Shown here in pieces: positions 2,229-30,704 of a stretch of DNA of 64,000 nt. The stretch's first letter is position 1. Each line of letters opens with the position of its first letter. A program made the position numbers and the translations under genes. Location: the IMG/VR virus record IMGVR_UViG_3300045988_179014, positions 1 through 64,000 of that record; one strand, 5' to 3'. The DNA comes from a virus. The notes beneath the pieces were generated by a model. It had not been told where the DNA came from. It saw only the letters and a program-made list of their open reading frames with translations, and made no database searches.

Positions 2229-2229
2229 G

Positions 2230-10649: not shown

Positions 10650-11627
10650 ATTTAATTGAATACAAGAATATTGTCGTTAGTCCGGTTTTTGGAGCGCTAA
10701 TTATTAACAGTGGCAAACTGTCCACCGGAATCGCACCAGCGTGCATCTTTTAATCGGGTAATGCCATCCCCGTCCAAATCGGACTAACGAGTACCCTTAT
10801 CTGGAATCGAACCAGAATGCATGGCTCCATCAAGATACACGAAAGGGAAAAAATTTTGATGGAGAAAACATGGCTCTACCATTGAGCTATAAGGGTTTGT
10901 AGAACCACCTAGACTTAGTGGTTTAGATGATAGGCTTTTGCTGGATTATGGTTTCCCAGCGTGTCCGCAACCTCCCGGCTGCACCTATCGCGCCCGGTGA
11001 CTATTGGCCACCAAATCATTACGCTGAACACTACTCTGCTCATTTTGGTTCGGACAAGGGCCGCTAAACCCCTATCCTGCACTACTCTGATACAAAACCC
11101 ATTTCACCTTGCGGGCGAAACAGACCCTTGCTTCACATGGCGTGGCAAGGTTTAGGACGCTTTCGCATCCAGCGAGGAAAGTCTTGTGCATGTTATTATC
11201 ATAGAGGTTGAAAGGAATGTGCTTTCCTGGAGGCCACACACTCTTTTGGAGTGCACGATACCTCACATTCCCATACACTTTGGTGCCACCCATCGTGTAT
11301 CATAAAACACCCGAAAATGTCTTTCCGGCTATTTGTCAATGGTTGCCGCCCTTAACTGGCATGTTTCAGACTATGCAACCTTCCTGAAACAAGATGTGGC
11401 TTGTTTTGTGTAGTCACAGCCTATACTCATCAGTATAGGTGCTTCTAACTGCTCAGCATTTGCCATTGCAGCCAACTACACCCCTCACCACACCCCAAGC
11501 CGCGGATTTTCCCGACCTGGTTGGCTTCAGGATTGCTTGAATTGCCAAAACCAAAGTTCTGGTGGCAGGGTTTCAACCACCCCCGCCTTTCACCCCCTCA
11601 CGGAGGCTTATGCGTCAAGCCGCTTTG
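10650..11627. other. About 1 kb ORF-free, GC-richer segment with stem-rich sequence; possible structured RNA gene(s)
   Basis: No credible ORF and composition distinct from the flanks. Contains the tRNA-like element and GGGGGTGAAAGG / GAGGAAAGTC-type motifs loosely reminiscent of RNase P RNA. These could not be reconciled into a known secondary structure by eye. Confidence 0.3.
10792..10886 (-). ncRNA. tRNA-like gene with canonical acceptor, D and T arms but an aberrant 56-nt central (anticodon/variable) region
   Basis: Minus-strand reading: ACCCTTA-TA-GCTC AATGGTA GAGC-[56 nt containing the 10-bp hairpin TCTCCATCAA...TTGATGGAGA and a GAGCCATG direct duplication]-TCTGG TTCGATT CCAGA-TAAGGGT-A. 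The 7-bp acceptor, 4-bp D-stem and 5-bp T-stem all pair perfectly; no CCA is encoded. Confidence 0.5.
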
Positions 11628-11705
11628 TGCCTGTCACGGGATTCGAACCCGTAATCCTTGGAACCTAAATTAGTTAGGCGCGTATACCAATTCCGCCAGA
11701 CAAGT
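11628..11705 (-). tRNA. tRNA-Leu-like (divergent; anticodon loop region CTAAT/ACTAATT, possible UAA)
   Basis: D-arm GGCGGAATTGGTATACGCGCC as in bacterial tRNA-Leu; T-arm ACGGG TTCGAAT CCCGT. Acceptor stem has one A1:C72 mismatch and the anticodon loop is non-canonical (C33). Confidence 0.5.
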
Positions 11706-11728
11706 ATTTGGATAGATTGAACTATCTC

Positions 11729-11808
11729 TACTTGCCACAGGACTCGAACCTGTATTCCTTGGGACCTGAAGGTGGTTCAGGCGCGTATACCAATTCCGCC
11801 TGACAGGC
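11729..11808 (-). tRNA. tRNA-Leu-like (divergent tandem duplicate; anticodon loop ACCACCT is non-canonical)
   Basis: Shares a 22-nt identical D-arm segment and an 18-nt spacer motif (gatagattgaactatctc) with its neighbour. T-arm ACAGG TTCGAGT CCTGT. The acceptor has a mismatch and G:U pairs; this may be a pseudo-tRNA. Confidence 0.45.
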
Positions 11809-11837
11809 ATATATTTTTGATAGATTGAACTATCTCG

Positions 11838-11919
11838 TACCTCAGATGGGAGTCGAACCCACACCCCTTATCGGGACCTGATTTTGAGTCAGGCGCGTCT
11901 GCCATTCCGCCACTGAGGC
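11838..11919 (-). tRNA. tRNA-Leu (anticodon CAA), type II with long variable arm
   Basis: GCCTCAG-TG-GCGGAATGGCAGACGCG-CCTGA CTCAAAA TCAGG-TCCCGATAAGGGGTG-GTGGG TTCGACT CCCAT-CTGAGGT-A. The anticodon loop is canonical (U33, CAA, A37); 82 nt. Confidence 0.7.
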
Positions 11920-12893
11920 CTAAGATAAATATAAGATAAGCTAAGCTAAGTAAACTAATCTAAACTAACATAATTCAAACTAATTAACTAAAAACAGTTT
12001 TGCAGTACTGTCCACCAGCCTCCCTTGTACTGCTATTCTTGCGCCTTTAGCCGTTTATCCCAACACCTCCTGACAAACAACAGCAACAAGAACAATAAGT
12101 CAATTCTTGTATTCCGCATGAGCGGCAGTCAACACCTAAGTTTCCGAACACGTCTCACGACGTTTACATCACTGTTCAACAACAGTGTCAACTCCCAGAC
12201 TTCCCTATTGACGGTACGCTCTGGTCAGCGCAGGGTCTTCCTCCCCCAGTATGCCTAACTGGGCCTCTTTATTGTATTTTTCACCTTATTGGTGTGTTTC
12301 CATTTTAGCACATTTGCCTCAGTTGTCAACTTTGGCTCATGTCTAAAATTTCTTTTTACTAGTTCTATCCAAGCAATCAGTTTTTTGTTGTTTCACCATC
12401 TTAACACATCGGTTTTGGTATGTCAACCTTATGTCAGCTGATGTTGTATATAACAACTCTATCATATCCTTTAAGAAGTTTCAACTCTTGTTGTGTGCCT
12501 CGTAGTCACTCTGGACCAGTCATCGTACACACAGAGTTATCAACTCCGTCTCGGACCTATCTTGAGTTGTTCAATACATCCATTCTGCCTGATAGATGTT
12601 TGGATGTCAAGTCGAAACCACAAGTTTTTTGATTTTTCTCAACTGGAGCCAACTTTAACGAATAACTGATTCCTCATAGTAAAACAAAGAGCACAGAATT
12701 GGGTGCTTCACGAAAATGCAGATAGAGGGGATATGACGGATACCTAGAAACTGTCAGCACTGGAATCCCATTGGTTGAGCTTTTAACCAATTGTGTTTAA
12801 CATATGTAGACACTTTTGATTTTGGCAATCAACAGAAAAGTGGCGCGGAGTAAAAAACTCCGCGCCACTGATTGAGGGCGAGGCATCATCCGC

Positions 12894-13103
12894 TCAATCA
12901 TCTTCATCTGGAAGCGCCGATTTTTCAACGGCCTCCCAGAAACCTTCCTCAGGAGTAATGATGTGAATTTTACCATTTTCCCAATAACTTACCAAGTTGG
13001 CAAGTAGGGGAATGTCCCACTTGCTATCTGTACCATCGGCTTCCTTCATGAGCAAATCAAGATAGTTGATTACATCCTGAATCGTCGTAAAAGTTCGTGA
13101 CAT
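12894..13103 (-). CDS. Small acidic hypothetical protein (69 aa)
   Basis: ORF preceded by RBS GAAAGGGAG and a canonical sigma70 promoter. Confidence 0.45.
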   Translation of the reverse strand: MSRTFTTIQDVINYLDLLMKEADGTDSKWDIPLLANLVSYWENGKIHIITPEEGFWEAVEKSALPDEDD

Positions 13104-13134
13104 GATAACTCCCTTTCATGTTTTTGCTATTTCC

Positions 13135-13163
13135 ATCATAACAGGAGAACACAGCACTGTCAA
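13135..13163 (-). promoter_or_regulatory. Sigma70-type promoter (TTGACA-17 nt-TATGAT) for ORF 12894..13103
   Basis: Minus-strand -35 TTGACA (13163-13158), 17-nt spacer, -10 TATGAT (13140-13135). RBS lies 8 nt before the ATG at 13103. Confidence 0.5.
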
Positions 13164-13686
13164 CTCTCATACGTATCTCTCATAATAGAGGTATTGATTA
13201 CATAATCACTACATACGGTTTTTCACATATTTCTGTCAAAATATTTGGCTGCAACTGTACTTTATGCAATCTTCGTCGTCCCCTATTGCAGGCTTGGAGT
13301 GCTTTCCTCAACCATGACCCCAACAATCCACTCCACAGTTGTATACACAAGTGTTTATATGCTATCTGTTGGCATCAAACAAACTCTTTAAACAGGGTAG
13401 GGTAGCGCATCAACAAACACCCAAAAACCAAAGATTCTCCATATTGAAACAAAATCCACTTGGAAACAAAACTAGTTATTTCAACACATGAAAACATTCA
13501 TCATTCAGAAACGCCCCTCCTACCCTCCAGTAACAAAAGAAGGTCCCAAGACACCAATCTCAGGACCTTCCACACGAACAATATTGGACACACCAAACAC
13601 ATGCCAACACAACATTCGCAATTTGGGAGCAACTTATACGTAAATTCTCATGTTAGTAAAACACACCAAGCCATATTCTAGACAAT

Positions 13687-13956
13687 TCAAATATTGGCTA
13701 CTTCCTCAACGAACTTTTTGAACGTGTTTTTGGACATAGCGCCTGAACGCTCCCCAAGAACTGTTCCACCGTCATCAACTATTCGAACAGTAGGAACAGA
13801 CAGAATTCCAGGTGTAGGGGTTTTGTCCACATCCACATCCTCCAAAGTGATGTTCACTCCTTCAGACCGTAATTCTTCAACTACTTTATGAACAATTGGG
13901 GCGAACTTTTTACAGGGAGCACACCACTCAGCGCTGTATTTCACAACTTTGACCAT
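13687..13956 (-). CDS. Thioredoxin
   Basis: 89 aa with the CxxC active site WCAPCK (thioredoxin WCGPCK-like). Size and fold-consistent sequence. Confidence 0.7.
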   Translation of the reverse strand: MVKVVKYSAEWCAPCKKFAPIVHKVVEELRSEGVNITLEDVDVDKTPTPGILSVPTVRIVDDGGTVLGERSGAMSKNTFKKFVEEVANI

Positions 13957-14657
13957 AACATCATCCTTTCATCAACGACAAATCTCCCAACCAAACATGA
14001 ACCAATGAGACCATCTGTCAACTTCCACAAGAACAATCTGAGTAGCTGCCACAAATTGAGGACTTCTGTTTGGTGTCATATCTGGTTTCTTCACCAGTGT
14101 AACCAATTAGCACAGGCAGAGAGACTGTTGAGTTGGCTTCAAGCACAAGCATTTTGAGGTTCACAAAACACCTGAACATTATGTTGATAGCATTTTGACA
14201 ACAAGGTAGCTATTTGTATGCATTCTGTTGAAAATGATGTTTTGCCATTTCAGTGCTGATTGTGGGCTGTTGAATCAGAAGTGTCAAAAATTGGATGCAT
14301 ATGTTCAATAAGGAACAAATCAAGACCAATCCAAATATTGACTCATGACTCATAAAACCAAGAGACGTGTCCAATTCGCCAATATTCATACAATCATATG
14401 GACGTTTAACAACCATGACCTTTTGTCGTAACTACCAAAATCGTCGTCCCCCTGTTGGGCTTCATGAACTGGTCAGGTCAATACAAGCATTTCTCATTTC
14501 ATAACAACTATGTTTGTATGTTGTTACGAAAATGTTCTCAAAACGCAAAAAGGAAACAAGCAGCTACAAACAAGGACTGGGAACTCATTCCGGTATTGTG
14601 GATGATGTGATACTTGTACCTATCCCTTTTAAAGTAGCTAGAACTTGGCACATGAAA

Positions 14658-15107
14658 CTAGGACATCAACCCCAACTCGGTAACGATTTTCCAATTGACC
14701 AACTCAATAAAATTGATTGATGGGAGACCCCTCCCACCCCATGAATCCTCATTAGGTCCAACCCAGCGCAATGACAATAAACCAATCAAGAACATATTAA
14801 TCAAGTTCTTGGCATCATTGGTCTTGTAACATGGTACCTCTGCACGAAACCATTGTCGTCCAAAAACAGTCCTGACATACAAATTACAGGAATCCAGGAC
14901 AGGTTTCAAATCCAACAATTCCCAATGGAGCGTTGGTAGGGTGTTATGGAATTCGATTGTCCCTTCCAGCCCCTCATAAAAACGAGCGGTATTGGTTACT
15001 TCTACATCTTTTACAATACGCGGAAGTAACTGTTTACATGTATCAAACACGTCTTCAGTAATCACGGAGTTTCCCATGCCCTTTCCTTGTGTGCAAGAAA
15101 ATCCCAA
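14658..15107 (-). CDS. Paralog family member 1 (conserved C-terminal INFVELVDW tail)
   Basis: C-terminus ...LPSINFIELVNWKIVTELGLMS. Internal block NLINMFLIGLLSLRWVGP; N-terminal LLPRIV...YEGLEGTIEF. Confidence 0.55.
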   Translation of the reverse strand: MGFSCTQGKGMGNSVITEDVFDTCKQLLPRIVKDVEVTNTARFYEGLEGTIEFHNTLPTLHWELLDLKPVLDSCNLYVRTVFGRQWFRAEVPCYKTNDAKNLINMFLIGLLSLRWVGPNEDSWGGRGLPSINFIELVNWKIVTELGLMS

Positions 15108-15583
15108 TCAATTAGTTCAACAAAATTGATTGATGGGGGATAACGGTCTTCTGAGGAATATTTCTGGTTCCCCTTATACAGCATTTGTTTAATACGTTGT
15201 TTCCATGATTTTGGAGAAACATCTCTCCACTTGCTGGGACCAGAGCCAGACCTCGGTACCCAAGCCAAAGACAACCATGTGGAGAGAAAAGCCAAAACCA
15301 CATCATCTGCTGAATCAACTGCAAAATATGGAATGCTTGCACTGAACCAATAACCATTCTGGATGTCCAATACGTGGCAATTCTTGGCTGTTGGTGGACT
15401 AAGAGTCAAAACCCAATGGAACTTATGTCGCAATGGAACCCGGATACGTCCAACCCAATCCCAACCAAATACGTCAGTCACAACACAACTAGGAAGTATT
15501 TGCGACAGTGTTTCGCTCGCATGATTGATTGTTTCTGGGGAGAAGATTGGTGCATTCTCACCCATGTTGGATACCTCATCCAT
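15062..15583 (-). CDS. Paralog family member 2
   Basis: C-terminus ...PPSINFVELIDWDFLAHKE. Internal DDVVLAFLSTWLSLAWVP. Confidence 0.55.
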   Translation of the reverse strand: MDEVSNMGENAPIFSPETINHASETLSQILPSCVVTDVFGWDWVGRIRVPLRHKFHWVLTLSPPTAKNCHVLDIQNGYWFSASIPYFAVDSADDVVLAFLSTWLSLAWVPRSGSGPSKWRDVSPKSWKQRIKQMLYKGNQKYSSEDRYPPSINFVELIDWDFLAHKERAWETP

Positions 15584-15677
15584 ATGTATTCCCTAAATGC
15601 GAAAACGCCCTATGGCTGGGCATTGTTGACAATTCATTGTTCAAATAGTACCAGAACTTGACTGCCAGAACAACGCG

Positions 15678-16154
15678 TCAACTATCAGACAGTCTCAATC
15701 TAGTCACCACATCCCAATCCACTAGCTCCACAAAATTAATGGATGGAAGATGGACCCTAGAGGATTGAGAATGCCTCTTGGCGATTCTACGTATCCACTT
15801 TCGGAACCAGTTGGACGGAGTTGTCATCACACACATGTCATCAGACCCAATCCAACGTAGAGTCAGAAATCCGGTCAAGAAAATGCTAATCAAATCATAT
15901 GACGAATTGATTTTGCGATATGGAATTCTCGATAGGAATATTGAGCCTGACTTCTTTGCCAACTCTAATTGGTACCAACTCGAAGAAAACCTCGGGTTTG
16001 TAAAGTACCAGCACAAATCTATATTGTATTTAGGTATTTGGATAGTGCCTTCTATCCCATCATAGAACGACGCGTCAAACACCATGCAATTTTTTATTAC
16101 ACGTGGCAGCCAATTTCTGCCATGTGTTAATAAATCAGGCATAAAGACACTCAT
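15678..16154 (-). CDS. Paralog family member 3
   Basis: C-terminus ...LPSINFVELVDWDVVTRLRLSDS. Internal YDLISIFLTGFLTLRWIG; N-terminal WLPRVIKN...YDGIEGTIQI. Confidence 0.6.
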   Translation of the reverse strand: MSVFMPDLLTHGRNWLPRVIKNCMVFDASFYDGIEGTIQIPKYNIDLCWYFTNPRFSSSWYQLELAKKSGSIFLSRIPYRKINSSYDLISIFLTGFLTLRWIGSDDMCVMTTPSNWFRKWIRRIAKRHSQSSRVHLPSINFVELVDWDVVTRLRLSDS

Positions 16155-16803
16155 CTTGAGCCAGAAAACCCCAATTCAACAACTCGCTGAAATGAATCTC
16201 GGGCAAATAACTTCGAACTGACATTTGATTATAGGCATTTTTGGGCCTAGAGGAGGTAACCGGCCTCCACTCATACTTCTCTGAGTCGTTCCATGACAAC
16301 TCATAGTGAATCAATGCATCCTGAAGGTAACCTGGAGTTACAAACTTACTTGACGGGATGTCCTCCAGCATGAGCCAGCAAGTCAGAAAAACCCAAATAA
16401 CATCATTTACATTGATGATTGGTCTGTAGTCAATTTTTGCGAATGACACAGTATCCTTACCAAATCGAATTTGCAAACCATGAGACTGTCGGGTTTCTAC
16501 AGAGCTGAGGTACAACAACCACTCAAAATGAAGTCCATTATGTTCCAATGTTCCAGTTATGCCAGACGCCTGAACATGGGAAACCGTCAGTCCCCGAATG
16601 AATTTTGGCAGTATTGAGATGAGTCGCTTGCTCATGTCCTGTCCATCCCGGTCAACGAGCATCTCAGTCATGGTTTCCCTTTCGCTGGTAATCATGAATA
16701 CATCATATACCACCCAATCCATGAAATCAACATGGACGTACACAAGTTCACAAGAAGAATCATAGACTGGATTCACACCAAGCTGCATTCTTGATTTGTA
16801 CAA
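16135..16803 (-). CDS. Paralog family member 4 (most divergent, longer N-terminus)
   Basis: C-terminus ...LPEIHFSELLNWGFLAQDECLYA. Internal VNDVIWVFLTCWLMLEDIP. Confidence 0.5.
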   Translation of the reverse strand: MYKSRMQLGVNPVYDSSCELVYVHVDFMDWVVYDVFMITSERETMTEMLVDRDGQDMSKRLISILPKFIRGLTVSHVQASGITGTLEHNGLHFEWLLYLSSVETRQSHGLQIRFGKDTVSFAKIDYRPIINVNDVIWVFLTCWLMLEDIPSSKFVTPGYLQDALIHYELSWNDSEKYEWRPVTSSRPKNAYNQMSVRSYLPEIHFSELLNWGFLAQDECLYA

Positions 16804-17422
16804 ACTTCCACATGTTTAAATGGCTAAATAGAGTATAAGGTCATTCCAAAACCGACTCAACCCAATCGAACTTGTTGTCATTACGAAACTAAAGATTAAT
16901 CTGATTGAACTTGTATTCCCAATATTGATGCTATCTCACTAATAGTCCATTATGGTTCGTTCGTGTTTTATGGATGGAATACACATACAACAAAGCCATC
17001 AACACTTTTTGTCGTCCCCCTTCATATCCAAAAACATACACCCCAAATAATCAAGACATCTTAAACAAACCCATTTCACACAATCAACAGACGCCCCAAA
17101 CCCCTCACCTCGTAATCTGTCGTCAAAGATTTTCAACCACCAACAACACTAATGGGATTACTTGCACACCTATGATTGACCAAGCAACTTCTATCAGGTG
17201 TAGTATTATTTCCAGCTCAACTATCATATAACGCAAGTATCTCATCAAATCAAAGAGTGCTCATACTCACAATTGATGAAAAACACTCCATTCTGAGTAG
17301 CAATTCTAAAAATCACACAATATACCAGTCCATCAACCCTAATCAAACATAGGAGGGATTCAAATTGATTTTCATGAACGTGTTGTATACAATTTGATTG
17401 ATTTATAGCTTGGAAGGATTGT

Positions 17423-17854
17423 ATGTTGAATACTGTCGTGCTGGAAGAAGGGTGCGAACTTCTATCCAAAACCATTCCCAGTTGTGGTGTGACTTACATG
17501 AACCGTCAGAACAGTTTGAGTGGAGAATTTGCAACACGTTCACACCATGGCATGTGGAAACTAATGCTCACCAACAATCCAGAATATAGTTACAAACTAG
17601 TTGCTTGGGTTGATAACACATCTGGGAACTTTCATACTTCCATCCAGCCCCATGTTCTGAAAACCGGAAATGACTTAATCATGGTTTTCCTCAGTGGATG
17701 GCTCAACCTGAAACCACATGCACACTCTTCACTTACTGTACCACCCCCACCAATCAATTTTGTGGAACTGGTGGATTGGGAAGCTGTGATTGAACTGGGA
17801 TTGGGAAAATACATGGAAACAACCGATTCCCCGTATAATAACACAGATGACTGA
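17423..17854 (+). CDS. Paralog family member 5
   Basis: C-terminus ...PPPPINFVELVDWEAVIELGLGK. Internal NDLIMVFLSGWLNLKP. Confidence 0.6.
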   Translation: MLNTVVLEEGCELLSKTIPSCGVTYMNRQNSLSGEFATRSHHGMWKLMLTNNPEYSYKLVAWVDNTSGNFHTSIQPHVLKTGNDLIMVFLSGWLNLKPHAHSSLTVPPPPINFVELVDWEAVIELGLGKYMETTDSPYNNTDD

Positions 17855-17928
17855 ATTCCTAACATCCAATTCCAAAAATTGCTACTATAATCGAATCAAC
17901 TCATTACAACTGAGAAACAGAGAGACCA

Positions 17929-18456
17929 ATGAACAACTTGTCAATTTATGAGCCTTTTGCTATCAGTGAAGGCAAAACAGTGTTGACAAAAGTGGTACCA
18001 AATGTTTTAACCGTTCTCGTGGCTCATCAAAGTTTCTGGGGTGGAACGTTGGAAATCCCGTCCTGTCCAGTCTTTCGTTGGGAATTCTGTCCAAATACAG
18101 AAACCTCCCAAGGTCGTTACTTTTTACGAATGATTTTAAATGAAACAATTTGGTTCAATACCCAAATCATTGATTACTCCATTAACACCATCAACGATTT
18201 TATCACACGATTCCTTGGGTGCTGGTTAACCCTTTCATGGACAGGGGGAGCCAATGAAATCACATGGCACGGATTGGTGAGGAGACGCGACAGTGTTCAT
18301 ACATCCGAAAAATCATGGGCACGACAAATCGGCGTATGTCTTGGTGGGAAACAAGTACGAGGGAAAATACGACCATCCAAGTTATGCACCCATTACTATC
18401 CATCCATTAATTTTGTGGAGCTAGTGGATTGGGATGTAGTTGCCAAATTGAAGTAG
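17929..18456 (+). CDS. Paralog family member 6
   Basis: C-terminus ...YYPSINFVELVDWDVVAKLK. Internal INDFITRFLGCWLTLSWTG. Confidence 0.6.
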   Translation: MNNLSIYEPFAISEGKTVLTKVVPNVLTVLVAHQSFWGGTLEIPSCPVFRWEFCPNTETSQGRYFLRMILNETIWFNTQIIDYSINTINDFITRFLGCWLTLSWTGGANEITWHGLVRRRDSVHTSEKSWARQIGVCLGGKQVRGKIRPSKLCTHYYPSINFVELVDWDVVAKLK

Positions 18457-18551
18457 AGGAACCAAACCCGAAATCGTTAATGTTTGGTTGTAAAATTTTT
18501 AACGTTCCGTTCGCCACTTCTAATTCTCTTGGGGTCATAATTTTGCAATGA

Positions 18552-18629
18552 GGGTTATTCACAGCCTTCCTCAAGTGCGCCCTGACTAGGTATTTTACTG
18601 GCCGCCACGCCGTCTGTGAATAAGCCTCA
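18552..18629 (+). repeat. About 80-nt hairpin element, copy 1 (10-bp stem ttattcacag/ctgtgaataa, conserved loop motifs cctcaagtg and gactag)
   Basis: Stem ttattcacag (18556-18565) pairs with ctgtgaataa (18614-18623). Homologous second copy at 19993-20070. Confidence 0.5.
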
Positions 18630-19992
18630 ATACTCCTACACGAGAAAATAAATGGCTTTCACAAACAAATCTCTAAACCAGCAAAATAAATCCATGTAAC
18701 TGGGTTCTCACAAAATTTGTCGTCGTCCCCTTTTACAAGCCACACAACAAGACGGAACAAACACCAGCAAGACAGTATGACCGTTTGTTGATGTATTGAA
18801 CCAGAGCACAAACATTACGAACAATAATCATTTGACCAATACATGAAATCACTAGCAAATGACGACAAACTGTGTTGCCATGTAAGTGCAAAATGCTTCT
18901 GTCACCATCCATGCTGAAAACAGATGATTTAATCGTATTACACTTCCTGTCGTTTCAATACATTCTTAGTACATTGGACAAACTAGCCAAATATATGTAT
19001 GCCACAATCTTGGACGAAACCCAGTATAAGTAATTCACGCATATTGACAGGTTCATTGTTCAACAATCATGACACAAACATATCCCCAAAACACAGCCAA
19101 ATTACACAGTAATCAAATCAGCCATTCAACTGTCACCCCACTCCAGAGACAACAGATGAAACAGCAGCAAACAAAAAACATCATTGGTGGTAGCACTTTC
19201 AGTCCAGTTCATTGATTCACACTAAACACACCAAAAAATGTTTGTTCATGCTCAACTAACAACCGAATATACCATACACAAAAGGTGATGAGAAGAAATT
19301 CAAGGAATCAATCAAAACGGGCATGTTCACTTCGCCCATAACTCATGAACAACAACATCTGTAGTCTCACTAGACGCCCTCAATCGGCTGTAAATCCCCT
19401 TAACAACGCCAACAGCAAAGGGGTTTAAGGGTGTGGTCATCCCAAGCTCTCAGAAACCATTCTATGGCGAATCACAGCATACTCTGTCCAAACCAAGTCA
19501 AAAGTTAAGCAAACAAATAAACAAATTACAAAACCCAATCAAATCAGTCATCAACAGGAACAAACACAAGAACTGCCCCCACCGGTTATGTTCGATGTTG
19601 GAAATCACGAAATAGACCCAATTCGATTGCCAATACCCGGAAACAATCAAGCCCAAATAATTACAATAGCACCTCTACAAAGAAGTACCAGGAGAACCAA
19701 AACCAATCTTTTGAATCTCTTGACGGGAATCCAAACAAAAACCCTAATGAAGAACCCTATCTGAAAACCAATTAACCACTCTCAACTGTTTCCAGACTGA
19801 ACCATCACATTATGAGACCGGCCAAGAGAGCTAATACGCCAACCCAACCCGAAATCAAAGTGCCTCAATTCAAAATTCACACATGTCAGTCAATACAACA
19901 TCTCTTTCGTCGTCCCTAGGTAGGTTAAAATATCTTCTTCTTGAAACAACGAATACACAATTGATTACAGGAAGAACATTAATTGTACCTAT

Positions 19993-20070
19993 GTGGCTTA
20001 TTCATAACTCCCCCTCAAGTGTGTAGGTTGACTAGAAGCCGCTTGAAATGCCGCCTGTGAATAAGCCTCC
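19993..20070 (+). repeat. About 80-nt hairpin element, copy 2
   Basis: Stem ggcttattca (19995-20004) pairs with tgaataagcc (20058-20067). The loop carries ctcaagtg...gactag...gccgc...gccgcctgtgaataagcctc, as in copy 1. Confidence 0.5.
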
Positions 20071-23000
20071 ATGATTCGCTACATTGTTTTCCTTCCAGAT
20101 TCAAAACAAGAATTCAAACAAGTAACTATCGTCCCAACCAGTTCATTGGATTGTTGTTGTATTTACCTGTACTCCATTCATTGAAGACCTCAAATCTTGA
20201 CTCACCCAGTCTCCAAATCATGTGACAACATTTGTATCAGCTTTAGCATTACCCCCTTTAGTATTACCCATCCACTTATGTAGCGAAGGTAAATTCGGCA
20301 AATACAATAGGTAAAACCACAAGTTTTCTGCTACAAATGTCAACACAGTACTTGTAGCGAGAAAACAATGAGTTCATGATTAAGCAAGATTCTACCGCAC
20401 GTTTTTAGATAACAGGAGAATTGTTCACTTTTGTAGCGAAGAACCAATTGAAATAAGATAGAGGGGTATTTTGAAACGGGAATAAAGCCCATAACTCTAA
20501 CTCACTTCATTCAACCACAACACAAACTGAACAGGGGGTAAACCTCTCTTGAAACAAAAACCAAATCAGCATGTTACATGTAATGAGACCCTGAACCCAG
20601 ACATCTCTTACAACACCATAATAGTCAAATGTTCCAGTCCCATAAAAACATCAATCATCTCATTCATATATATTCTCAGCTTTTTGAGACTTTTTCAAAC
20701 TGCTCCACTCCACAGAAGCTCAACACACAAGCCATCAAGTTCTAAACACATGCTTTAACCCTGTTGTCAATCGTCGTCCCCAGTTGTTCGAAAACTATCA
20801 ATCATACACACTTGCCCCAAAGTCAAAACAGGCATCAAAAATACTGCAAATGCGCCCTCGTCAACATCCGCCAACCCAAACAATCAAAAACACAACCCAC
20901 TGCACCCCAATAAACCCCATCCATTCAAAACCAAACAACAATAAACAAAAATACAACATGACAGCAACTTCACTACTGTCACAGAACCAACTACTAATCA
21001 AACAACTTCTCTTGTCGTCACTTCATTCAACAACAAGCCCAAATTCGAATAAAGACATCAACGCAGCAGCCAAATTCAACCAACACGCTCGTCACAATTC
21101 CAAAAACCAAACAGTAACCATCTCTCCCACTGAATCCAACAACATGCTGACAATCAACAAGAAACACACTACTCCACGCACCTACCAAACTGCATTACCT
21201 GATTCAAACAGTATGTCATCATTGAAACACTCTTCCTCGTAACACAACCCCCTTCACACATCAAGCAAACACCATTTTTACAATTAAATGGGATTCAGCC
21301 GCCGTTCAACCAAAATCAATACATCAAATCAACATTCACCAACCAGCATGCAACATGTACAAAGCAAACACTCAAATCATTGTTGATGCTATTGACAAAA
21401 TCTAAGCAATGCAATTCAACGAAAACGATACAACAGCAATTGCAACACCCTCAACAACATGTAATACTCGCACACGCTTAGAGCAAAAACAAACAATTGG
21501 TACAGGACAAACAGACTTCTCGCTATGAAACAATCGAAACAGATTCCATCAACCTTGTAGAATTGCAGAACTCCTTCATTCAGGGAGGTGCAATCATGAG
21601 AACACCATCACAGTCCCCCCCCACCACCAAGACCGCAAATCAAGCAAAGATTCAGTACCAAACTGTATACAACCGCTCCTATCAATGCACTTCTGCACTA
21701 ATAAGCTCAGGAATCACTGTTGAACAAGTTGAATAGTATGGACACACCACTGGATTGTGTGCATTGTATTCAACAATTGGAACACTCGCCTACATTGATG
21801 AAATACAGCACACATCATATTATGAAAAAACACATTCCACAACACTTGATACATGACAAATAACACACACCTGAAAACAACAAGCAATCATCAACACTGT
21901 TCATACAGCGGTCACGCCATTGTTCACACTAGTCATTGAAAATCAAATTCAACAAAACGGCAAATCAACACCCCACTATCTCGCCAGTATTCATAACAGG
22001 TCAACAACTGTATCCAACCCATAAAGCAATGAAAACAAGCCCACTTCACCAAACATCAACTACCTGAACCTGCATCAGCGAGAAACAGTTCCATCAGTTT
22101 TGTCGTCCCCTCCCACTCCACAACCAATCCTACTTCATGATAAGCCAATAACGTTTATACATCCCCCATGAAACAAACACCAAAAACACACATACGGTTT
22201 CACATCACGTGTTTCAGAAAACCACAAAGATTCACCAACACACAAAACACCAACAGTTCAAGAAACCCCAACCTCGAATCCAGAACCCAGACAATCAAGA
22301 CTTGGATTCACAACATGCTCCCATATATACCTTGTATGGGGGTAAACTCAACCCTTCATCCAATACCCAAACCCATCCCGCCAGCAATTTAAAGCAACAA
22401 CAAAAACAAACTACACAAACAGACATCACAATGGGTATATGAACAAATTATGCTTTGATGAAAAGACATACTTGAACTGTATTCACAGTATCCAAAACAT
22501 TATTTCAGAATTGAACCATGTGAACAGTAGACAATACAAAACCACACTGACAAAAACTCCAACAAGTGCACAGTTCACATTCACGGTAATCGCGCCCAAC
22601 TGAAGAAACCAATAATCCAGCTTACACAGCAACTATAGACATTACCAGCCAAATCCAAAGCACCACAAAGATTCTATTGCTCAAGACATGCAAAAACAAA
22701 CCCAAGGAAATCAGCATCTACCCAAAGCACGCCCACTGTCAACACTTGCATGCACATCAAGACACAAACACCTGGAACCAATCAACAAAATCCCCAAGCA
22801 TCCAACTAGCCCCAAAACGATGCAACCTAATACAAACTTTTCATATTTCGTCGTCCCCGAGCAAGCAGTGAACACAAACCGCAATGAAACACCACATCTC
22901 AACAAACAAGGACGTAAAAACAAAAGAGGCAACAGTTGGCCACGAATCATTTGCGCTCATCAACAACACAAACAATCTATCATGGAATCAATACCAACTG

Positions 23001-26000
23001 TATCCATTCATGCCACCACATACTGACAATTTGAATCATGGTCAAACTACGTACTCTTTACACTCCACAATAATTCATTACCATGGCATGATTACAGCTC
23101 AATGGAAGCATCTTTCCCCAACTTGATTTGTTCACACTTGGTTCTGAATCATGAACTGTTGGTGAGTGTTCGTTTTTGTTTCACAGTTGTATGAAATGTT
23201 CGCAAGTTTGAGTGGGAGCAAGAAATACAGGGAAAGATTTGAAACATGGGGCCATTGTGCTCTGATGTGTGTTTTGTTGTTGTCAGTACTGAATGTCAAC
23301 ATGACCAAAGTTGTATGGTTGTGAGAATTCAATAACTGGTTTTGTGCATGTGCAGTAGAAGCTGCATGTTTTCGTGATTGTGTTTGCGGTTTTTGTATGC
23401 AATTGCCAATGAATGTAAGTGTAAAACATCAATCCTGTGGTCAATAGGGACAAATCATTTGCTGGAAAGTATCAAATGGTCATGAGTGCTTGCAGAATGA
23501 GCGTGTTTAGTGTGTGATGGCAGCATTTTTGTCAACAAGTGTATGTATTGATTTATTCTGATGGTTTATAGTTTTTGACAGGTTGGTGGGAAACTTTGGG
23601 AACAGAATGTTTTTCAAACCATGGTAATGCAGTGTAAACAAACCCACACTATAATCTAAGATTCACATCAACAGTTATCCGTCGTCCCCAGTACGGCTAC
23701 ACTTTTTGGCTATTGAAGACAGCATTTCAGTTTACAACGAAAGCAAACCAGTCAAACACATTGAAAAATCAAGAACCACAAAACCCAAACTCTTGCATCA
23801 AACACCTATAACAAATCACCAACATTCTGCCCTCACACATCCCAGCAATCAATACACCAACTCATGTATTGCGTGTTGCATCCAAAAACAAAACCAGAAA
23901 CAGCAACAAGAGAACTGTATCTCATTGTTGACATCACAGACTCAACAGGAGCACTATTTGTTACCCCCACTTTTCATACATCTGAACACGGCCCGAAATC
24001 ATAGCACTGTAATTCTCTCACACCCACCAATACCTCATTCTTACAGCACCACAACTCACACCCTGTTCTGGGCAAACACTCGTTGACCCTACACCCCCAA
24101 CCGTGCTACAAAACCCAAAATGTAAACAAAACCAGCAAAGAAACCCAATAAACCATCCCCAAAAAGAAACACTCTCAAAACCTCACCCAAACACGCAAAT
24201 ACACAAACACATGAAACACAACAACCCATACTCCCCAATAAGCAATCTCCGTAGAAACATACAAACCACTACCTATACCGAACCAAGCACATCTCAATCC
24301 AGACACAACACAACCAAATACTTCAATGAACCACAATTTCACAAACCATTCCCCCACAAACCGAATCGAGAAAAAACAATAAACAAGCAATCATATGAAC
24401 AGACTGATTAATACCAGGCAATGGACAACAAACGAAGACTGACAGCAATTCAAAATCTTCTATCGTCCCCCATTCAAACAGAAAATCTTCTCTACCACTG
24501 AAAACTATGTCCAATCATGTTTTTGAAACACCACAAAACCACGAACCGGACTCATACAGTTTCATCCAAGCCCCTTGAAGATGCATAACTCAAAGAAAGT
24601 GATAAACAACACATTGTGTTCATACACTGTCGTAATCGAACTTGTCACATAACACCAAAAGCACACGCGTTTTTTACAGAACCAACAATTTCAAACATAC
24701 TCCATCATATGTTTTCAATTTGGACAAGTAATCGCTGCTATGAAAAACATGTAATCAACCTTTAACACTTGAACCACATAACACGTAATTAGATTAACAG
24801 GGTTCAGCAAAATTCGCAGGTTCAACAGCCGCCAACCCCAGTTCACACAATGTTTCAATGATTCATCAACTATACATAAAGAAGATGTGCATATAACCAC
24901 ACAATACACAACGCCCATTTGCAATCACAATCATGGACACACTATGAACCGAACACACCTGACTACTGCACACACTTACTCTGTATCAACTCATGCCATG
25001 ACCATCACCACCAAAACCATGTGAATCATATATACGTTGACTGCAAACAAATCATTACCACAACATTTAACTTTGGTCACAACTTGATTAACGTCTTATC
25101 TCGCCCCAACTCACACCATTGCGACTTAAAACACTGACATCTCCCAACGTGCTGAGAATCCCACAAATGCACATAACATCAACCTGTAATGCCAACATGT
25201 GCAGATAGACAAACTCCCACCACCTACAAACATGCTCCTCAGAAAGAATGATTTGTCAACATCTGTGCACCATCAAAACCAAACATGTTCACCCAATCAA
25301 TTTCGTTTGTGACAGTTGACTTCCTCATAAACTTTAATACTCAAAATTCAAAGAAGATTTTTGCATCCCATTAGCACTAGACAAAACACTCTCATCAGTT
25401 TCATCATCACTCAGCAAACCACCCAACAAAACCGCAAAACCATCAACACCCACATCCCACACATAGTCCATTGACAATCAATAACATGAGCAGAAACCCA
25501 AAACCCAACTCAACCAATACCATCCCCCTCAAAACCGTCGTCGTCCCCAAGCAAAACAAACCAAACACCCAACCAGTAAGCTTTTCCAGACAGCAAAAAC
25601 ACAACCCACAACAATAACCAACATCAGAACCAAACCATTGAAACATGCTATACATCATTAGTTCATGTACATTCATAGTTTCCAACTACTTACAACAATC
25701 TTTGTCAACAGTCATAATCATGATGAGGGCAGCACATAGTCAACTAAATCTTTTCAAAAACAAGTTGATTCAAATTGATTACAAAACCCCATAATCTTTG
25801 GCGACCCCTCAAAACCAAAACCCAATACTACAAAACCCAGAAACAACAAAGTCAAAATATAGCAAATTCAACCGTTTACAAAGCAGGAGGGAATATTTTC
25901 AGCACAGACAAGACATTCAACAGGGTAACGTGTATTGTCAAGAGGCATATAGGTCGGGTTGTTGAAACTGTAGACGATGAATACAATATGCAAACATAGA

Positions 26001-26982
26001 ACATATAGGTTTTGCCGGTTTGTGCATGACCATTGAAAATTCACAGTGAGTTTGAAGATGTTGACATCTGGTTTCAGGTTTGTGGGCTCTGTAAAGGTTG
26101 AATGACTCATGGTTTTCATTACAAAGTCCACATATCTTTTTCATTGGTTGTGTTTTTGTGTGAAGCAAAGATTGGATGAACTTTGTTTGAGGAAAGATTA
26201 TTCAAACTGGTGAGACCGTGTTTGCTCGTTCAAACTGATAGAGTTATGTTTGTTCAATAAGTGATTTTTGCCATTTGAGATAGTTGATGTTCCTCAATTG
26301 CTGCGGTTGATGTTTGAGATACGGTTTCACTTCTATCATATTAGCGCTCATTGGGTGGTATCAAATTATCAAAACCCGATACGACAACACACAATTCTGT
26401 ACAACATGCAAACAGTCTCAACATTCACATCACACAAATCCACAAAACACACAAGCTTTCGTCGTCCCCATACTATAAAGACCACAAACAACTAACACTC
26501 CCATATGCATTTGAACCCACCCAACACAAGCGACCAAAAACACAAACAAACTCCACAAGAACAAAAACCAATTCTCTGACATCCCCAACCATGCTCTCAG
26601 TCACTTAGAACCAAGCACCCATGCTATTTGTCAACAAAGTAGTACCCAACAACACAAACAAAAATCACCATTCAACTCGAACCCCACACAGCATCTCCCC
26701 CCATCATGACCAAAACACAGTTCATACATACTCAACCAAACACAAAACAATGCCAAACCACACTCACACGTTTTTACAAAGTATTCCCACACACTAACCC
26801 ACAAACCAAAGAAACCAAACACTAATTCAACAACCAACACCATTAGAACCATAACAAGAAACAACAACCATTGAACACAAAAACCAACCCCACACCCAGT
26901 CACCAACCAAACACAGAAACAACAACAGAGTCATGTTTCCATATTTGTCAGCCATAAGTAAAAGACAGCAACCCAATGTATC

Positions 26983-27004
26983 CATGTTCATATGTCAACA
27001 CTGG
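26983..27004 (+). repeat. 22-mer catgttcatatgtcaacactgg (copy 1) followed by ttgttgtgtgaaat
   Basis: Exact repeat of the 22-mer at 29567-29588; the minus strand reads ccagTGTTGACAtatgaacatg (contains TTGACA). Confidence 0.45.
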
Positions 27005-29566
27005 TATTTGTTGTGTGAAATGCGTTCAACTCGCAACTTGACACGATTGAACACATGTACAGCAAAGCAGTGTTCATCAATAAGGTCAAAGTCTACCAAT
27101 GATAAGATTCCAGAACACTACATTGACCACCCAATTCCCAAACACTGTCTACATGTTGGTTGTATCCAGTACAATCCCTGATTAGCCTCAACAACATGTT
27201 TGCTTTCAGTTCAAGTATGATGCTCGCTTCTATCAGTAGGAAGATAAGACAACACTAACATCCCCATACATCACCCAACAGAAACACATTCAAACAAGAA
27301 AACCATAGACCCATTTCTGACAACACAATCAGCCACTCATTGGATGAAACTGCTCGTATCAGATTAAAGCGCATAGAGGTCACACTACTAACATTCACAG
27401 CCTCATCCATCACATTGACACATTCTCGCATCCAAAACAGCTGAAACACAAGAATACTATCCAATCACCAAACCCATAAAATGTTACAAAACCTCTCCAC
27501 AACGATTCACAAAAACATTCCCGTAGAAACCTTGTTCACATCAACACCAGAACAATAACAAACACCAATACAGAAGGATTGCAAAGAAAACACAAGAAAG
27601 CGACAAACCAACAAACATCCTCCCCATAACCATGTAACTGTTTCACACCATTATTTCACTTGCAGCCCAAATACCGACTGAACACAAATTTACACAGCTC
27701 AATTTCATCTACCGCCACTTTCACCAATTGGAAATCCAGCTCATCATAACCCATTCCCACCAACTACTTATCTCACTCATCATGTAACACCAGTTGACCT
27801 AATATATTCATTATGGCCCTACACAGTTCAAGGAATAATGTTTTCTGTTGTATGGGTGTTTAATAGTATTACGACTGTTGTCTTTCGTTCTTTTTGTTCA
27901 TTGGTTGCCTGAACAGTACAACTACTTGTCAACAATAGAACAAATGCTACAAAGGTTGAAAATCATAGATGTGTTATTTATAGGGGGCACATAGGTTTTC
28001 CTGTACTTGTTGAAAATATTTTCGTATGTTCTATGGTAGTAGTCATGGAACCTGGTTCATCAAGCGACAGGAACAAGGTATTGATTACATGTCCACACAA
28101 ACCATAATTTCACACAGACGGATAAACAAACAACAAAACAAATACACCCCTGTAACAAATCGTTGTCAGAAGCCATGGCAGTTATCAACAACCCATACTA
28201 AAACAGTAAACAGAGACAACCTTCATTGCACAGAATATTACAGTTGGCAACGTTTTGAATCCACATCACCATGCACTACTCTCTTTGCATGTTTTGAAAT
28301 CAACCAGCAATCTGAACAAACACAGAATCACCATACTGGCACACATTGATGAAAGAGTATCAACTGAGCCAAAAACATTACCTCACAACCATCAACCGTT
28401 TTCCATCTATTGACAGAATCCCAACCACTCAAAATTCTTCAACACCACAATTGCCCACGACATTGACAGTAGTAGACATCAACCAACAATAAACAGCGGT
28501 ACTCAACAATCAATCACATACAACACAAACACGAAACGAATTCATATCCTTCAAATATGCCTCAACCAGACTCTTCCACAATAGTTGGGAAACTAACTGT
28601 TACACATTATGTCATCATGCTGTAGTTCTCTCACCAGTTTGTTTTTCACATCCCTGTTTGGCATCCTATTCAAAAATACATTCAAGGTTAAACTCTGCAA
28701 CAACAATGTATTACAAGAGAGACATCCGTTTTATTACCCGTTTACTCATCCATGTGAAATTGTGTTTTTGTTAACATTTAGTCAGTACCATGTTCGTGTT
28801 GTTTGGCGGACTAGGTTTGGTAATTACTGTCGTAAGATGTGCAAAGATGTTTTCAGCCAATGTCGGAAACTCATTCAACCCACTATGAATAAACACCTGC
28901 GATTTTGAATTTTTGAGCCCCTGTTCTACCGTCGACGAGTTACCGTACTTTTTGGGTAATCAATGAATGAAAACGAAAGAAGAGGCAACAGTTGCAATGC
29001 TGTAAATCACTGAGATAGCGGAAAACATTTATTTGTCAAACTCCATAGACCCCCAATGGGAATGGTCACTCAGTATTACATGATGAAGAATTGACGGAAT
29101 AGACTATGATGACAAGTTTGACTGTTAATAAGCGAAAACAGCAACAGAGACAACCAAACCCGTATTAATTGGTATCCATCCAGTACTTGAAACACAAGCA
29201 AAGTAAAGACGCAAAACAACCACAGGAAGAACATTCATTGATTCTTTGCTATCCTGTGTTTCTCTGCAATCTCCTGCACCAATTTTTTACTGTTGCGATG
29301 CTGATGCAAACAGAACTCTACAAAGATGGCTCATAAATTGTTGTGAGAAAAGGTTACAACATTTCATGGGCTCAAACGATTGATGTTACACTCTCATGTT
29401 TTCAGCTGCTTCTGATGCAAAAATATACCAATGCGGCAAATGAAACACCGAAAGCAAACGACGCAACCACCACTCACCTTAATCCAATACAAACAGTTTC
29501 CTCCAACAGGCTACTTGATTATGTTGTCAGAAACAGGTCACAGTCTTCCTGTTCAAATACTGTGTT

Positions 29567-29588
29567 CATGTTCATATGTCAACACTGG
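29567..29588 (+). repeat. 22-mer catgttcatatgtcaacactgg (copy 2) followed by gttgttgtgtaata
   Basis: Exact match to 26983-27004. Confidence 0.45.
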
Positions 29589-30354
29589 GGGCGGCAGTCG
29601 GGCTGGTTTATAATCTTGAGTGGGTTGTTGTGTAATAGAGTTGTTGAGTGTAATCAGAGGTGTTGAATGCAGTTGTTATATTTCCGGGTTTGTTTTCATT
29701 GTGTAAAAACTGTAATCTGATGTGTTCATGCCGATGGATGACTAGAACACTGTATTACCAAAATCATCTTTCCCAATGAAGATTGAACAAAAACACAGTG
29801 AACAACTGACTATCATGTTTGGGCCGTTTAATTATGTATAGCGCAGCAGTTTTCGTTGACAGTGTTCATTATCAGAAATGAACCGCCACAATGCCACATT
29901 GACCATCCAGCACCAAAACACTATTAACACGACATCATCACCTCTGTGCCTGGTTCGCATGCAATCACGATGAACACATTACTGTTATGTTTGAGAACCG
30001 GTAATTATGCATGCTTGATGATTGAACACCAGAATCAACTGTGTTCATTCTTGTATTCGTGGTATCAATAATGTTTCAAGCCAGAATTCATTCATGTAAA
30101 CAATGAGCATATACACCAACTGGGGAAACAACACGCAAGCCACGAACAAAACCAAAAACACAAAATTACCAACCCAACCTCTCTTGACAACACAATGGAA
30201 ACAACAATCAACAAATAAACACAACTGAAAACATTGAACAAAAAAGAAAAAGAGGGACCAAACACACATCCGCACAATTCAACCCCACTCAACAACTCGT
30301 TCCCCACAACTCACACCCCAACCACCTGCCAACACTTCCCCCACCTTCCACCAT

Positions 30355-30393
30355 TTGTAAACACTTGCCCCCATTGTAAACACTTGTAAACAA
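30355..30393 (+). repeat. 3x direct repeat TTGTAAACA(CTTG) at the compositional-polarity switch point
   Basis: ttgtaaacacttg at 30355-30367 and 30374-30386, and ttgtaaaca at 30385-30393. + strand A/C-rich polarity ends and G/T-rich polarity begins at about 30400-30420. Confidence 0.6.
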
Positions 30394-30704
30394 TACTCGC
30401 ACAGCTCGTTCACTGTTTGTTCCAATCATCGGTGGCTGTTTTTACTGCTGCCGTTTTGTGCTTCTTCTGTCTTCGGGCTTGACCCCATCGTTTCGCTCCC
30501 GCCTTCTTCTCTCCCTACGGTCGGTCATCGGCGTCCGCTTCACTGTGGTTCCTGCACCCAACTTTGTTGCTTTCATTGGTTGCTGTTGTTGGCTGCTTGT
30601 GTTGATTGTTTTCAATTGTGTTGGTGCTGTGTGTTGTTGTATTGGTTTTTACTGCTTGGTTGTGTGTTGTTCTTGTTTTGTACATATGTTTGTTGTGTTG
30701 TTCT

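Follow-up and report, generated by a model that had tools for sequence, protein, structure and literature searches.

A selected, strand-polar word repeated along one arm of a giant phage/plasmid-like element

Along one arm of the 64,000-nt stretch of IMG/VR record IMGVR_UViG_3300045988_179014 analyzed here (hereafter, the window), a short word that reads GGGGACGACGA(A) on the minus strand recurs many times in a single orientation, which raises the question of what such a word is for. Its carriers are an uncharacterised family of giant phage/plasmid-like elements with both phage-like and conjugation-like genes. The initial annotation of the window listed twelve copies from 13273 onwards and proposed several roles for them, from promoters to the anchors of a decayed repeat. 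We conclude that the word is a real, selected, strand-polar signal; in the way it might work it resembles polar operator or boundary sites, and none of the families of elements that we tested fits it.

The excess and the polarity of the word are strong. The pattern TTTCGTCGTCCCC, with at most two mismatches, has 15 matches in the window, on the plus strand only, against 0.80 ± 0.85 (largest 3) in dinucleotide-preserving shuffles, an excess of about 20-fold or greater. Read in the other direction, the minus strand has 14 instances of the 8-nt core GGGACGAC, all within 549–26468, and the plus strand of the whole window has none; neither strand has a core to the right of 26.5 kb, so that the other ~37 kb of the window are empty. 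The word is thus no accident of composition. The single orientation, the absence of copies right of 30.4 kb, and the exclusion of a window-wide word of the type of Chi or of the FtsK-orienting polar sequences (KOPS) had all been proposed initially and are upheld. We count 14 intact copies and 2–4 degenerate ones in the window. A per-position tally of 25 copies (19 from the window and 6 from the related locus L011, some of them only loose matches to the search pattern) limits the conservation to GGGGACGACGA and two A-rich positions, with nothing conserved in the flanks on either side, as had been suspected. The density is of about one copy per 1.7 kb, with gaps of ~0.9–3 kb along a 27-kb arm. 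The whole array takes up ~27 kb, when the element measures 337 kb or more: it stops ~3 kb past the left end of the window, and locus L001, which reaches 3.4 kb past the right end, has no copy.

All twelve copies listed initially were recovered to within 1–4 nt. They lie on the minus strand, and the one closest to the strand-composition switch described below is GGGGACGACGAAA at 26457–26469, followed on its downstream side by 75 nt that are identical in a sister strain. Leftwards from there come GGGGACGACGACG (25536–25548), GGGGACGATAGAA (24458–24470), GGGGACGACGGAT (23677–23689), a second GGGGACGACGAAA (22846–22858), GGGGACGACAAAA (22098–22110), GGGGACGACGATT (20769–20781), AGGGACGACGAAA (19905–19917), GGGGACGACGACA (18718–18730), a second GGGGACGACAAAA (17007–17019), a second GGGGACGACGATT (14439–14451), and GGGGACGACGAAG (13271–13283). 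The copy listed at 24463 is present but degenerate, and has decayed further in the sister strain, to GGGGATGATAG. The copies at 17007 and 22098 read GACAAAA, not GACGAAA; at the former, strain L041 has GACGAAA and is nearer to the consensus. As described initially, this copy sits in the divergent gap of a cluster of paralogous genes, and the one at 14439–14451 lies ~22 nt upstream of the ATG of a small open reading frame (ORF), 14210–14416. The copy at 13271–13283, which carries one substitution in strain L041, has the best promoter match of the arm (TTGACA-17-TATGAT) 120 nt downstream.

The series does not start at 13273, nor is it confined to non-coding DNA, as had been claimed: four further copies on the minus strand, missed initially, lie inside real ORFs, always in the frame G/W-D-D-E/D. 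These are GGGGACGACGAGA at 538–550, in an NMN-adenylyltransferase-like ORF (2–1540) and in frame G-D-D-E; GGGGACGACGAAG at 3804–3816, in ORF 3367–4128 and in the same frame; TGGGACGACGAAG at 6570–6582, in frame W-D-D-E within a variable acidic linker of an rIIB-like ORF (6424–7482); and a variant, GGGGACGATGATA, at 7107–7119, in frame G-D-D-D within a variable linker of the same ORF. The first two are conserved in strain L038. The copies further right do mark a special, largely non-coding zone, in line with the earlier description.

The word is under purifying selection. Over the eleven copies compared with a strain 90–96% identical to the window (a 189-kb IMG/VR contig), the 8-nt core differs at one of 88 positions, whereas divergence in the ±40-nt flanks is 12.2% (P = 1.4e-4). 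The cores at 22857 and 23688 are intact in the sister strain despite neighborhoods that are only ~60–67% identical: the 28 nt upstream of the former are heavily diverged, and the 100 nt around the latter are 67% identical. In the other strain, two variant copies match the consensus better, while the copy that is degenerate in the window has decayed further. Inside ORFs, the word is selected as DNA, at the nucleotide level, to judge from the codons chosen for the tripeptide GDD and from the location of both copies in the rIIB-like protein, within non-conserved acidic linkers. GDD is written GGG-GAC-GAC in both of its occurrences in motif-bearing left-arm ORFs, and GGG-GAC-GAT in a third, when GGG accounts for 22% of the Gly codons and GAC for 38% of the Asp codons; the three GDD tripeptides found elsewhere in the window use other codons.

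The word recurs in one distant relative. Relatives were found via the conserved C-terminal domain of a 666-aa protein encoded at 31357–33357 (hereafter, the marker), on contigs of 309–727 kb, and the loci compared span ±10 kb. In L011 (727-kb contig, marker 65% identical) there are six copies, all on one strand and all in the arm beside the iterons. This arm has no DNA or protein homology to the arm of the window, and the word has the same place and orientation in both. The closer relatives, with markers 74%, 71%, and 68% identical, have no array, and the motif-less relatives give 5 matches, both strands together, in 433 kb. We found no analogous different word in L005, L007, L009, L010, L015, L016, or L026; the top words of two of these were considered as analogues and discarded, the one of L005 being the origin iteron and the one of L007 an 18-nt tandem repeat. 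The sole reversed copy, at L038 position 17785, ~6 kb beyond the left end of the window, falls in a gene of opposite orientation and on its sense strand; this is a single case and could be a chance run of D-rich codons.

The arm that carries the array runs leftward from a switch in strand composition. Both GC and AT skew reverse sign at ~30.4 kb, with |GC skew| of up to 0.45 on either side, and iterons lie at 30200–31200 (TTGTAAACACTTG three times, AAGTGTGCGC four times). Relatives L005, L007, and L011 have the same composition switch, and the iteron core AGTGTGCG recurs beside the marker gene in L004, L005, L010, and L011. The iteron-bearing switch is likely an origin of replication and/or transfer. 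To its left, the ORF-poor part of the arm (19000–30200, minus strand) holds 7 intact and 2 degenerate copies (20136, 24470) at ~0.9-kb spacing. It is G/T-rich and C-poor (26% G, 36% T, and 14% C on the minus strand, more precisely 13.9% C), and has almost no ORFs under any stop-codon reassignment. Recoding was considered as an explanation for the missing ORFs and rejected: with TGA, TAG, or TAA read as sense, no code yields clean long ORFs on one strand. At 22.9–30.9 kb, nearly all ORFs of at least 45 aa are broken by indels or stops in a 92% identical strain, and substitutions have no third-position bias; hence the interval 22.9–30.4 kb, the only one for which the absence of coding was tested, is truly non-coding. 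It still contains blocks of 95–100% identity between strains. No Rfam 15 family matches 12000–31500 at E-values up to 1, the only matches of the window being a GOLLD RNA and tRNAs at 10.8–11.9 kb.

Several other features accompany this switch. Throughout 19000–38400 the G/T-rich strand points away from it in both directions, including in the half of the marker gene that encodes its disordered N-terminus, and the same skew pattern is found in L005, L007, and L011. There is a second ORF-poor stretch at 35.1–38.4 kb. Another polar word, TGTTGAC(A), flips at the switch: it has 12 minus-strand and 2 plus-strand copies in 19–30.4 kb, then 8 plus-strand copies and 1 minus-strand copy in 30.4–38.4 kb. 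It is about 10 times more frequent than expected from composition and contains a perfect -35 hexamer, but a good -10 is often missing; there are two instances of a longer, 28-nt version (CCAGTGTTGACATATGAACATGG...), at 26977 and 29561. An inverted duplicate of 75 nt, with 94.7% identity, spans the switch, with one copy in the non-coding left arm (25384–25458) and the other (32060–32134) inside the region of the marker gene that encodes its disordered N-terminus. Some relatives have, in their corresponding arm, other dense repeats that are unrelated to the word: L027 has many copies of TCCATATTT and TCCACCACT at 600–5500, and the 18-nt tandem repeat of L007 lies at 1134–1530.

Where the word stands relative to transcription units can be seen in L011, whose arm still carries genes: 5 of the 6 copies lie 20–110 nt past a stop codon. 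Two of these six copies lie ~45 nt after strong terminators (a hairpin plus a T-run) and 99–122 nt before a good -35/-10 pair, and share a repeated block of ~110 nt made of the terminator, a spacer, and the word. Promoters were called solely as matches to the sigma-70 consensus. For 12 of the 17 non-coding copies of the window and L011 together, the best sigma-70-like match within +12 to +260 is at 80–125 nt downstream, against 3.6 ± 1.7 of 17 for random anchors, none of 400 trials reaching 12. The promoter-like sites lie 45–164 nt downstream of the word and none overlaps it. A strict promoter or transcription start site at the word, one of the roles suggested initially, is thus unsupported: there is no upstream conservation of the kind expected for a phage-type promoter, and the -10-like TATAGT preceding the copy at 26468 is not conserved. 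Nor is there a fixed relation of the word to start codons. Divergence between strains is 15% upstream of the word versus 9% downstream (P = 0.01), and G+T content is highest just upstream, falling after about +100. At 19.9–26.5 kb the spacing is regular (mean 936 bp, coefficient of variation 0.22, P = 0.0003, or 0.017 without the degenerate copy); the measured distances of 748–1329 bp agree with the 740–1340 bp given initially.

The units that separate the copies are not homologous to one another. Local alignments between units score 29.3 on average (maximum 38), against 27.0 (maximum 47) for shuffled units, and no repeat family extends past the core. Folds of the -90 to +100 regions have no shared secondary structure; a nearby hairpin occurs for two L011 copies only, and these hairpins are the terminators. 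There is no inverted repeat or attC-like hairpin at the word and no partner complementary to it anywhere in the window. Finally, the right arm, although equally skewed, has no mirror motif.

We tentatively favor a reading in which GGGGACGACGA(A) acts at the level of DNA, as a site bound by a protein in an orientation-dependent manner, at the borders of tandem co-oriented transcription units, by analogy with the stoperators of mycobacteriophages; we give it a probability of about one in three. The arm left of the 30.4-kb switch would be a series of leftward, co-oriented transcription units, non-coding close to the switch and carrying accessory or early genes farther out. Each unit would run from a promoter through a better-conserved 5' part to a poorly conserved G/T-rich tail, then the word, and then ~100 nt of T-rich DNA leading to the next promoter. 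The asymmetric word would be bound by a sequence-specific protein of the element or of its host, present in some lineages only, and the bound protein would serve as a polar boundary or operator, which stops or silences RNA polymerase arriving from the upstream unit and/or controls the promoter ~100 nt downstream. The binding and its effect are what we infer, and polar action is proposed because all sites share the same orientation relative to transcription.

What leads us to prefer a polar protein-binding site is the combination of a bare asymmetric word, its sense-strand polarity, its place after units and before promoters, its lineage specificity, and its density. The lack of conserved flanks and of structure leaves a bare asymmetric word of 11–13 nt, as for a monomeric DNA-binding protein. 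The two L011 copies located between a terminator and a promoter are in a spacer expected to be untranscribed, which, together with the lack of RNA structure, argues for a role at the DNA level. Since transcripts of the arm would be very C-poor, neither G+C hairpin terminators nor Rho loading sites are expected in them, which makes a protein roadblock plausible. Of the roles suggested initially, that of a termination signal survives as the best reading, recast as a protein-binding site on the DNA that would end or delimit non-coding transcription units.

Several observations weigh against this reading. No candidate binding protein or regulator was recognised among the window ORFs scanned, which cover 64 kb of at least 337 kb; the two plus-strand ORFs of the arm, at 4280–4924 (racemase-like by eye) and 7692–8087 (no family match), are not regulator-like. 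No copy overlaps a promoter, unlike in stoperator systems, which also have true operators. Four copies are in the middle of genes, far from promoter-like sites. The distance from motif to promoter varies from 83 to 122 nt with no helical phasing, which argues against a classical activator geometry. Promoter matches are not enriched overall (49 versus 47.7 in shuffles), and the match at 26364 has a changed -10 in the sister strain. In L011, the word is missing from two intergenic regions. The word is restricted to one arm, when the other is equally skewed and also has outward-pointing TTGACA words. Lastly, the model does not demand a regular 0.9-kb spacing in gene-free DNA.

This regular spacing is what an unlikely alternative would account for: the word might recruit a primase, a primosome, or a helicase about every kb on an exposed minus strand and so make it double-stranded. 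The strand could be exposed as the lagging-strand template, by displacement by forks or R-loops, or as the first-transferred strand if the iterons are an origin of transfer (oriT). The word lies on the G/T-rich, C-poor strand, which has the composition expected of DNA that is single-stranded for long, on one side of the switch, and most densely nearest to it; the spacing is Okazaki-like precisely where no genes set the length of units, and genes and spacers alike carry the word. Moreover, the L011 copies lie just past gene ends, such that a primer extended toward the origin would duplex the entire upstream unit. Conjugation-type genes are present (VirB4-like AAA_10, TcpE, FtsK-like, and a Replic_Relax-like protein beside the iterons), and the patchy distribution across lineages fits dependence on a particular primase. 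However, we identified no primase gene in the window, the exposed strand of the right arm is equally skewed yet lacks such a word, there is no shared hairpin of the sort found in single-strand initiation (ssi) signals, and the promoter-like sites ~100 nt downstream are left unexplained; single-stranded transfer of the element itself is an assumption. Known recognition sites of primases are of 3–5 nt, and known ssi signals are hairpins of 40–300 nt. It is somewhat more doubtful that the word is a periodic, hairpin-free loading signal for priming or helicase assembly on the exposed strand next to the origin or oriT of a giant phage-plasmid hybrid, by which each stretch of ~0.9 kb is duplexed, and hence made expressible, upon displacement or entry; the extreme G/T skew would then be the mutational footprint of single-strand exposure. 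About as improbable is a role in RNA, with GGGGACGACGA(A) in the leftward transcripts being bound by an RNA-binding protein or cut by a nuclease, so that long C-poor transcripts are processed, stabilised, or protected from termination. All copies are on the sense strand, even the reversed one in the opposite gene, the non-coding array of the window has nearly no terminator-like hairpins and the word is probably transcribed there, and ACGACGA is a rare C-containing island in RNA of ~14% C. Yet little RNA is expected over the two L011 copies that follow a strong intrinsic terminator and precede the next promoter, and such a role is further weakened by the lack of conserved structure or flanks, of an Rfam match in 12–31.5 kb, of a complementary partner in the window, and of a fixed relation to start codons.

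Strict polarity is also the defining trait of Ter and KOPS-type sites, and the word could be a signal for other DNA machinery, which we consider less probable still: a one-way fork barrier (Ter-like or like those of ribosomal DNA, rDNA), which would keep forks from entering a heavily transcribed arm head-on or make replication one-directional, or a word that orients an FtsK/SpoIIIE translocase (like KOPS or the SpoIIIE sites, SRS). Like KOPS, the word is directed away from the origin and belongs to the leading, G-rich strand; its place after units and before promoters matches the layout of rDNA barriers, and FtsK-like and gyrase genes are present. However, the other arm lacks a mirror set, whereas the TGTTGACA word flips at the switch, which makes a Chi/KOPS-type word unlikely. 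Furthermore, the array covers only ~27 kb, against 337 kb or more for the element, no Tus- or RTP-like family was matched among the ORFs scanned, and to our knowledge the word is unlike known Ter, KOPS, or SRS sequences. A core site for recombination, which delimits exchangeable units in the manner of integrons or of the repeated promoter/stem-loop cassettes in hyperplastic regions of T4-type phages and lets accessory units be gained, lost, and shuffled, is very unlikely. It would suit a hyperplastic arm, in which left-arm proteins have no homologues in the origin-proximal arms of relatives and the right arm is syntenic, as well as copies at unit borders, two of which in L011 share a ~110-nt block. 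Against this, the array is colinear between strains that differ by 8–10%, two strain-specific deletions (16157–16681 and 21195–21657) do not end at a copy of the word, and there is no inverted repeat or hairpin at the sites; for these reasons we disfavor the integron-like cassette boundary offered initially. Nor did we find a recombinase domain among the window ORFs scanned; in addition, four copies lie in frame within essential-looking ORFs, and an 11-nt core is too short for homologous exchange. As for a decayed ~1-kb tandem duplication, also among the initial candidates, or a mere compositional or chance word, the ~1-kb distances and the common strand are what would suggest them, and we regard them as practically refuted: unit alignments score no better than shuffled controls, no repeat family extends past the core, the word is in large excess over shuffles, the core is kept while the flanks diverge, and the same word is found in L011, whose arm is unrelated in sequence.

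How close does the putative polar binding site come to known systems? Mycobacteriophage stoperators are asymmetric 13-mer sites, with more than 20 per genome, found where genes are separated by short gaps; they are oriented in line with transcription, and their reversal abolishes function (PMC9283540). The likeness to those of cluster A mycobacteriophages (L5 gp71-type) lies in an asymmetric word of ~13 bp with a lineage-specific sequence, present in tens of copies at a density of about one per 1.7 kb, most of them in the short non-coding gaps that separate co-oriented genes; the orientation, which is tied to transcription in stoperators, may be so here as well, all copies of the arm being on the sense strand. 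There, a monomeric repressor acts at the asymmetric 13-bp sites, and the action that we propose is modelled on it. However, stoperators are spread throughout the genome and over both arms, whereas our word is restricted to one 27-kb arm beside the origin of a 0.3–0.7 Mb element, with none in 30.4–64 kb; and instead of a true operator over an early promoter we find promoter-like sites 45–164 nt downstream of the word. With these two defining features tested and lacking, the word falls outside the stoperator family. Moreover, the window ORFs scanned include no recognisable repressor with a helix-turn-helix and a stoperator domain, a quarter of the copies are inside genes, much of the arm is gene-free, and the sequence GGGGACGACGA is unrelated to that of stoperators.

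Other DNA-binding sites share parts of this layout. The Sal-box/TTF-I and Reb1 sites, in the rDNA spacers between tandem, heavily transcribed units, are polar terminators and fork barriers that lie, in one orientation, 100–200 bp before the next promoter, and they resemble our case as short asymmetric words placed after the end of a unit and ahead of the next promoter; they are eukaryotic and serve RNA polymerase I, whereas the units here are not homologous repeats and the binding factor is putative. The KorB OB sites of IncP plasmid RK2, about a dozen 13-bp sites of which many are 80–190 bp from the promoters they control, are alike in size, copy number, and promoter distance, but they are palindromic and non-polar, and no ParB/KorB gene was recognised here. 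The ssi/Frpo elements of plasmid leading regions and primosome assembly sites are strand-specific and lie on the exposed strand upstream of early or anti-defence genes. Here too a strand-specific signal is repeated beside a likely origin or oriT, in an arm with NAD-salvage and rIIB-like genes. However, those elements are structured hairpins of 40–300 nt whereas here a bare 11-nt word has no shared structure, and the putatively exposed strand is the sense strand of the genes, not the template strand. The failed structure test lowers the claim to membership in this group, not the possibility of a priming role.

Chi and KOPS are polar words of the leading, G-rich strand that flip at the origin or terminus; the DNA uptake sequences DUS and USS have no strand bias, and all of these are genome-wide. 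Like Chi, KOPS/SRS, and DUS/USS, our word is short, over-represented, and found in coding DNA only at permissive frames and positions; it differs from all of them in being local, limited to one arm and missing from 37 kb of the window and from 10 kb past its left end, and from Chi and KOPS in lacking a replichore-wide spread with a switch of orientation, there being no copy in either orientation in the 33.6 kb right of the switch. With Ter sites it has polarity in common, and the ORFs scanned have no match to the Tus/RTP-like family. The PeSL of T4-type phages are blocks of a promoter and a stem-loop, of tens of nt, and integron attC sites are imperfect palindromes. The likeness to both is in a hyperplastic region where repeated, co-oriented elements lie between genes on the borders of small accessory units that evolve fast; here only 11–13 nt are common, without a stem-loop, and units are not shuffled between strains. 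The inverted repeats by which attC sites fold into hairpins are lacking, as are an adjacent intI/attI with varying cassettes (no recombinase domain in the ORFs scanned, strains colinear), the full-length unit homology of a tandem repeat or satellite, and, in this arm, a covariance-model match to any known RNA family of Rfam 15.

The rest of the window gives some indications on the carrier of the array. Its GyrA is encoded on a 337-kb metagenomic contig. The marker protein (31357–33357, plus strand) has a disordered, G/S/V/D-rich N-terminal half and a conserved C-terminal domain with a weak match to Replic_Relax (9 of 22 family members, best E 3.4e-5); nothing matches it in 72,556 plasmid and 50,697 phage records. 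The neighboring T2SSE ATPase has no close relatives among the species genomes of GTDB, and the DNA at 13–27 kb has no match in phage records. Identity with the Inocle elements of oral Streptococcus was considered and rejected, given a G+C content of 24–32% there (PMC12340149) versus ~41% here. The right half encodes a NAD-dependent ligase, GyrA, a RadA-like protein, Tad-type ATPases and platform proteins, TadZ-like and RcpC-like proteins, a VirB4-like AAA_10 ATPase, TcpE, and an FtsK-like protein. Genes right of the switch are syntenic across relatives. More precisely, the backbone at 38418–50951, which adjoins the switch (T2SSE ATPase, (ligase), TadZ-like, RcpC-like, VirB4-like AAA_10, TcpE, T2SSF/T2SSE), is shared with L005, L007, L010, L011, L015, L016, and L027; these are pilus- or conjugation-type genes though IMG/VR lists the elements as viral.

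The left part has an rIIB-like gene (phrog_609, 6.7e-48), a NAD synthase, an NMN-adenylyltransferase-like ORF, a GOLLD RNA, and tRNAs. The origin-proximal arms of the relatives encode no homologue of any left-arm protein of the window; three of these proteins have homologues elsewhere in the L039 genome, including the rIIB-like gene, ~200 kb from the marker. The NMN-adenylyltransferase-like ORF, the NAD synthase, and the rIIB-like gene are three minus-strand genes of the motif arm (2–3177, 6424–7482) and look like a set of early or anti-defence (NAD-restoring) genes. The GOLLD RNA (RF02032, 175.9 bits; 10907–11273, minus strand) lies beside four tRNA-like genes (10792–11919), two of which are found by ARAGORN (Leu-TAA, Leu-CAA) and two by Rfam only, one of these being 105 nt long. 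The paralog cluster (14658–18456) consists of six small genes, of which the minus strand encodes four and the plus strand two, with a common conserved block of ~55 nt at the 3' end; the sister strain lacks 16157–16681 of this cluster, probably by recombination between paralogs. Finally, a 131-nt inverted repeat, 92% identical, has one copy in the left arm (8140–8270) and the other just upstream of gyrA (57531–57661), neither with an Rfam match.

These carriers, on contigs of 189–727 kb that mix phage-type and conjugation-type genes, are essentially unstudied. Within the up to ~10 kb of ORF-poor, extremely skewed DNA that flanks their likely origin, the word is the sole discrete selected signal that we found, and hence the most direct handle on the role of this region. 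Since some close lineages have the word and others lack it, a cognate factor with a matching distribution is predicted; loci of ±10 kb are too short to reveal one common to the motif-bearing lineages alone. If the word is a site for priming or loading, it would represent a new class of replication or establishment signal, devoid of the hairpins of known ssi elements. If it is a set of polar roadblocks or operators, it would extend the stoperator principle far beyond mycobacteriophages and show how units unable to use hairpin terminators or Rho may be insulated from one another.

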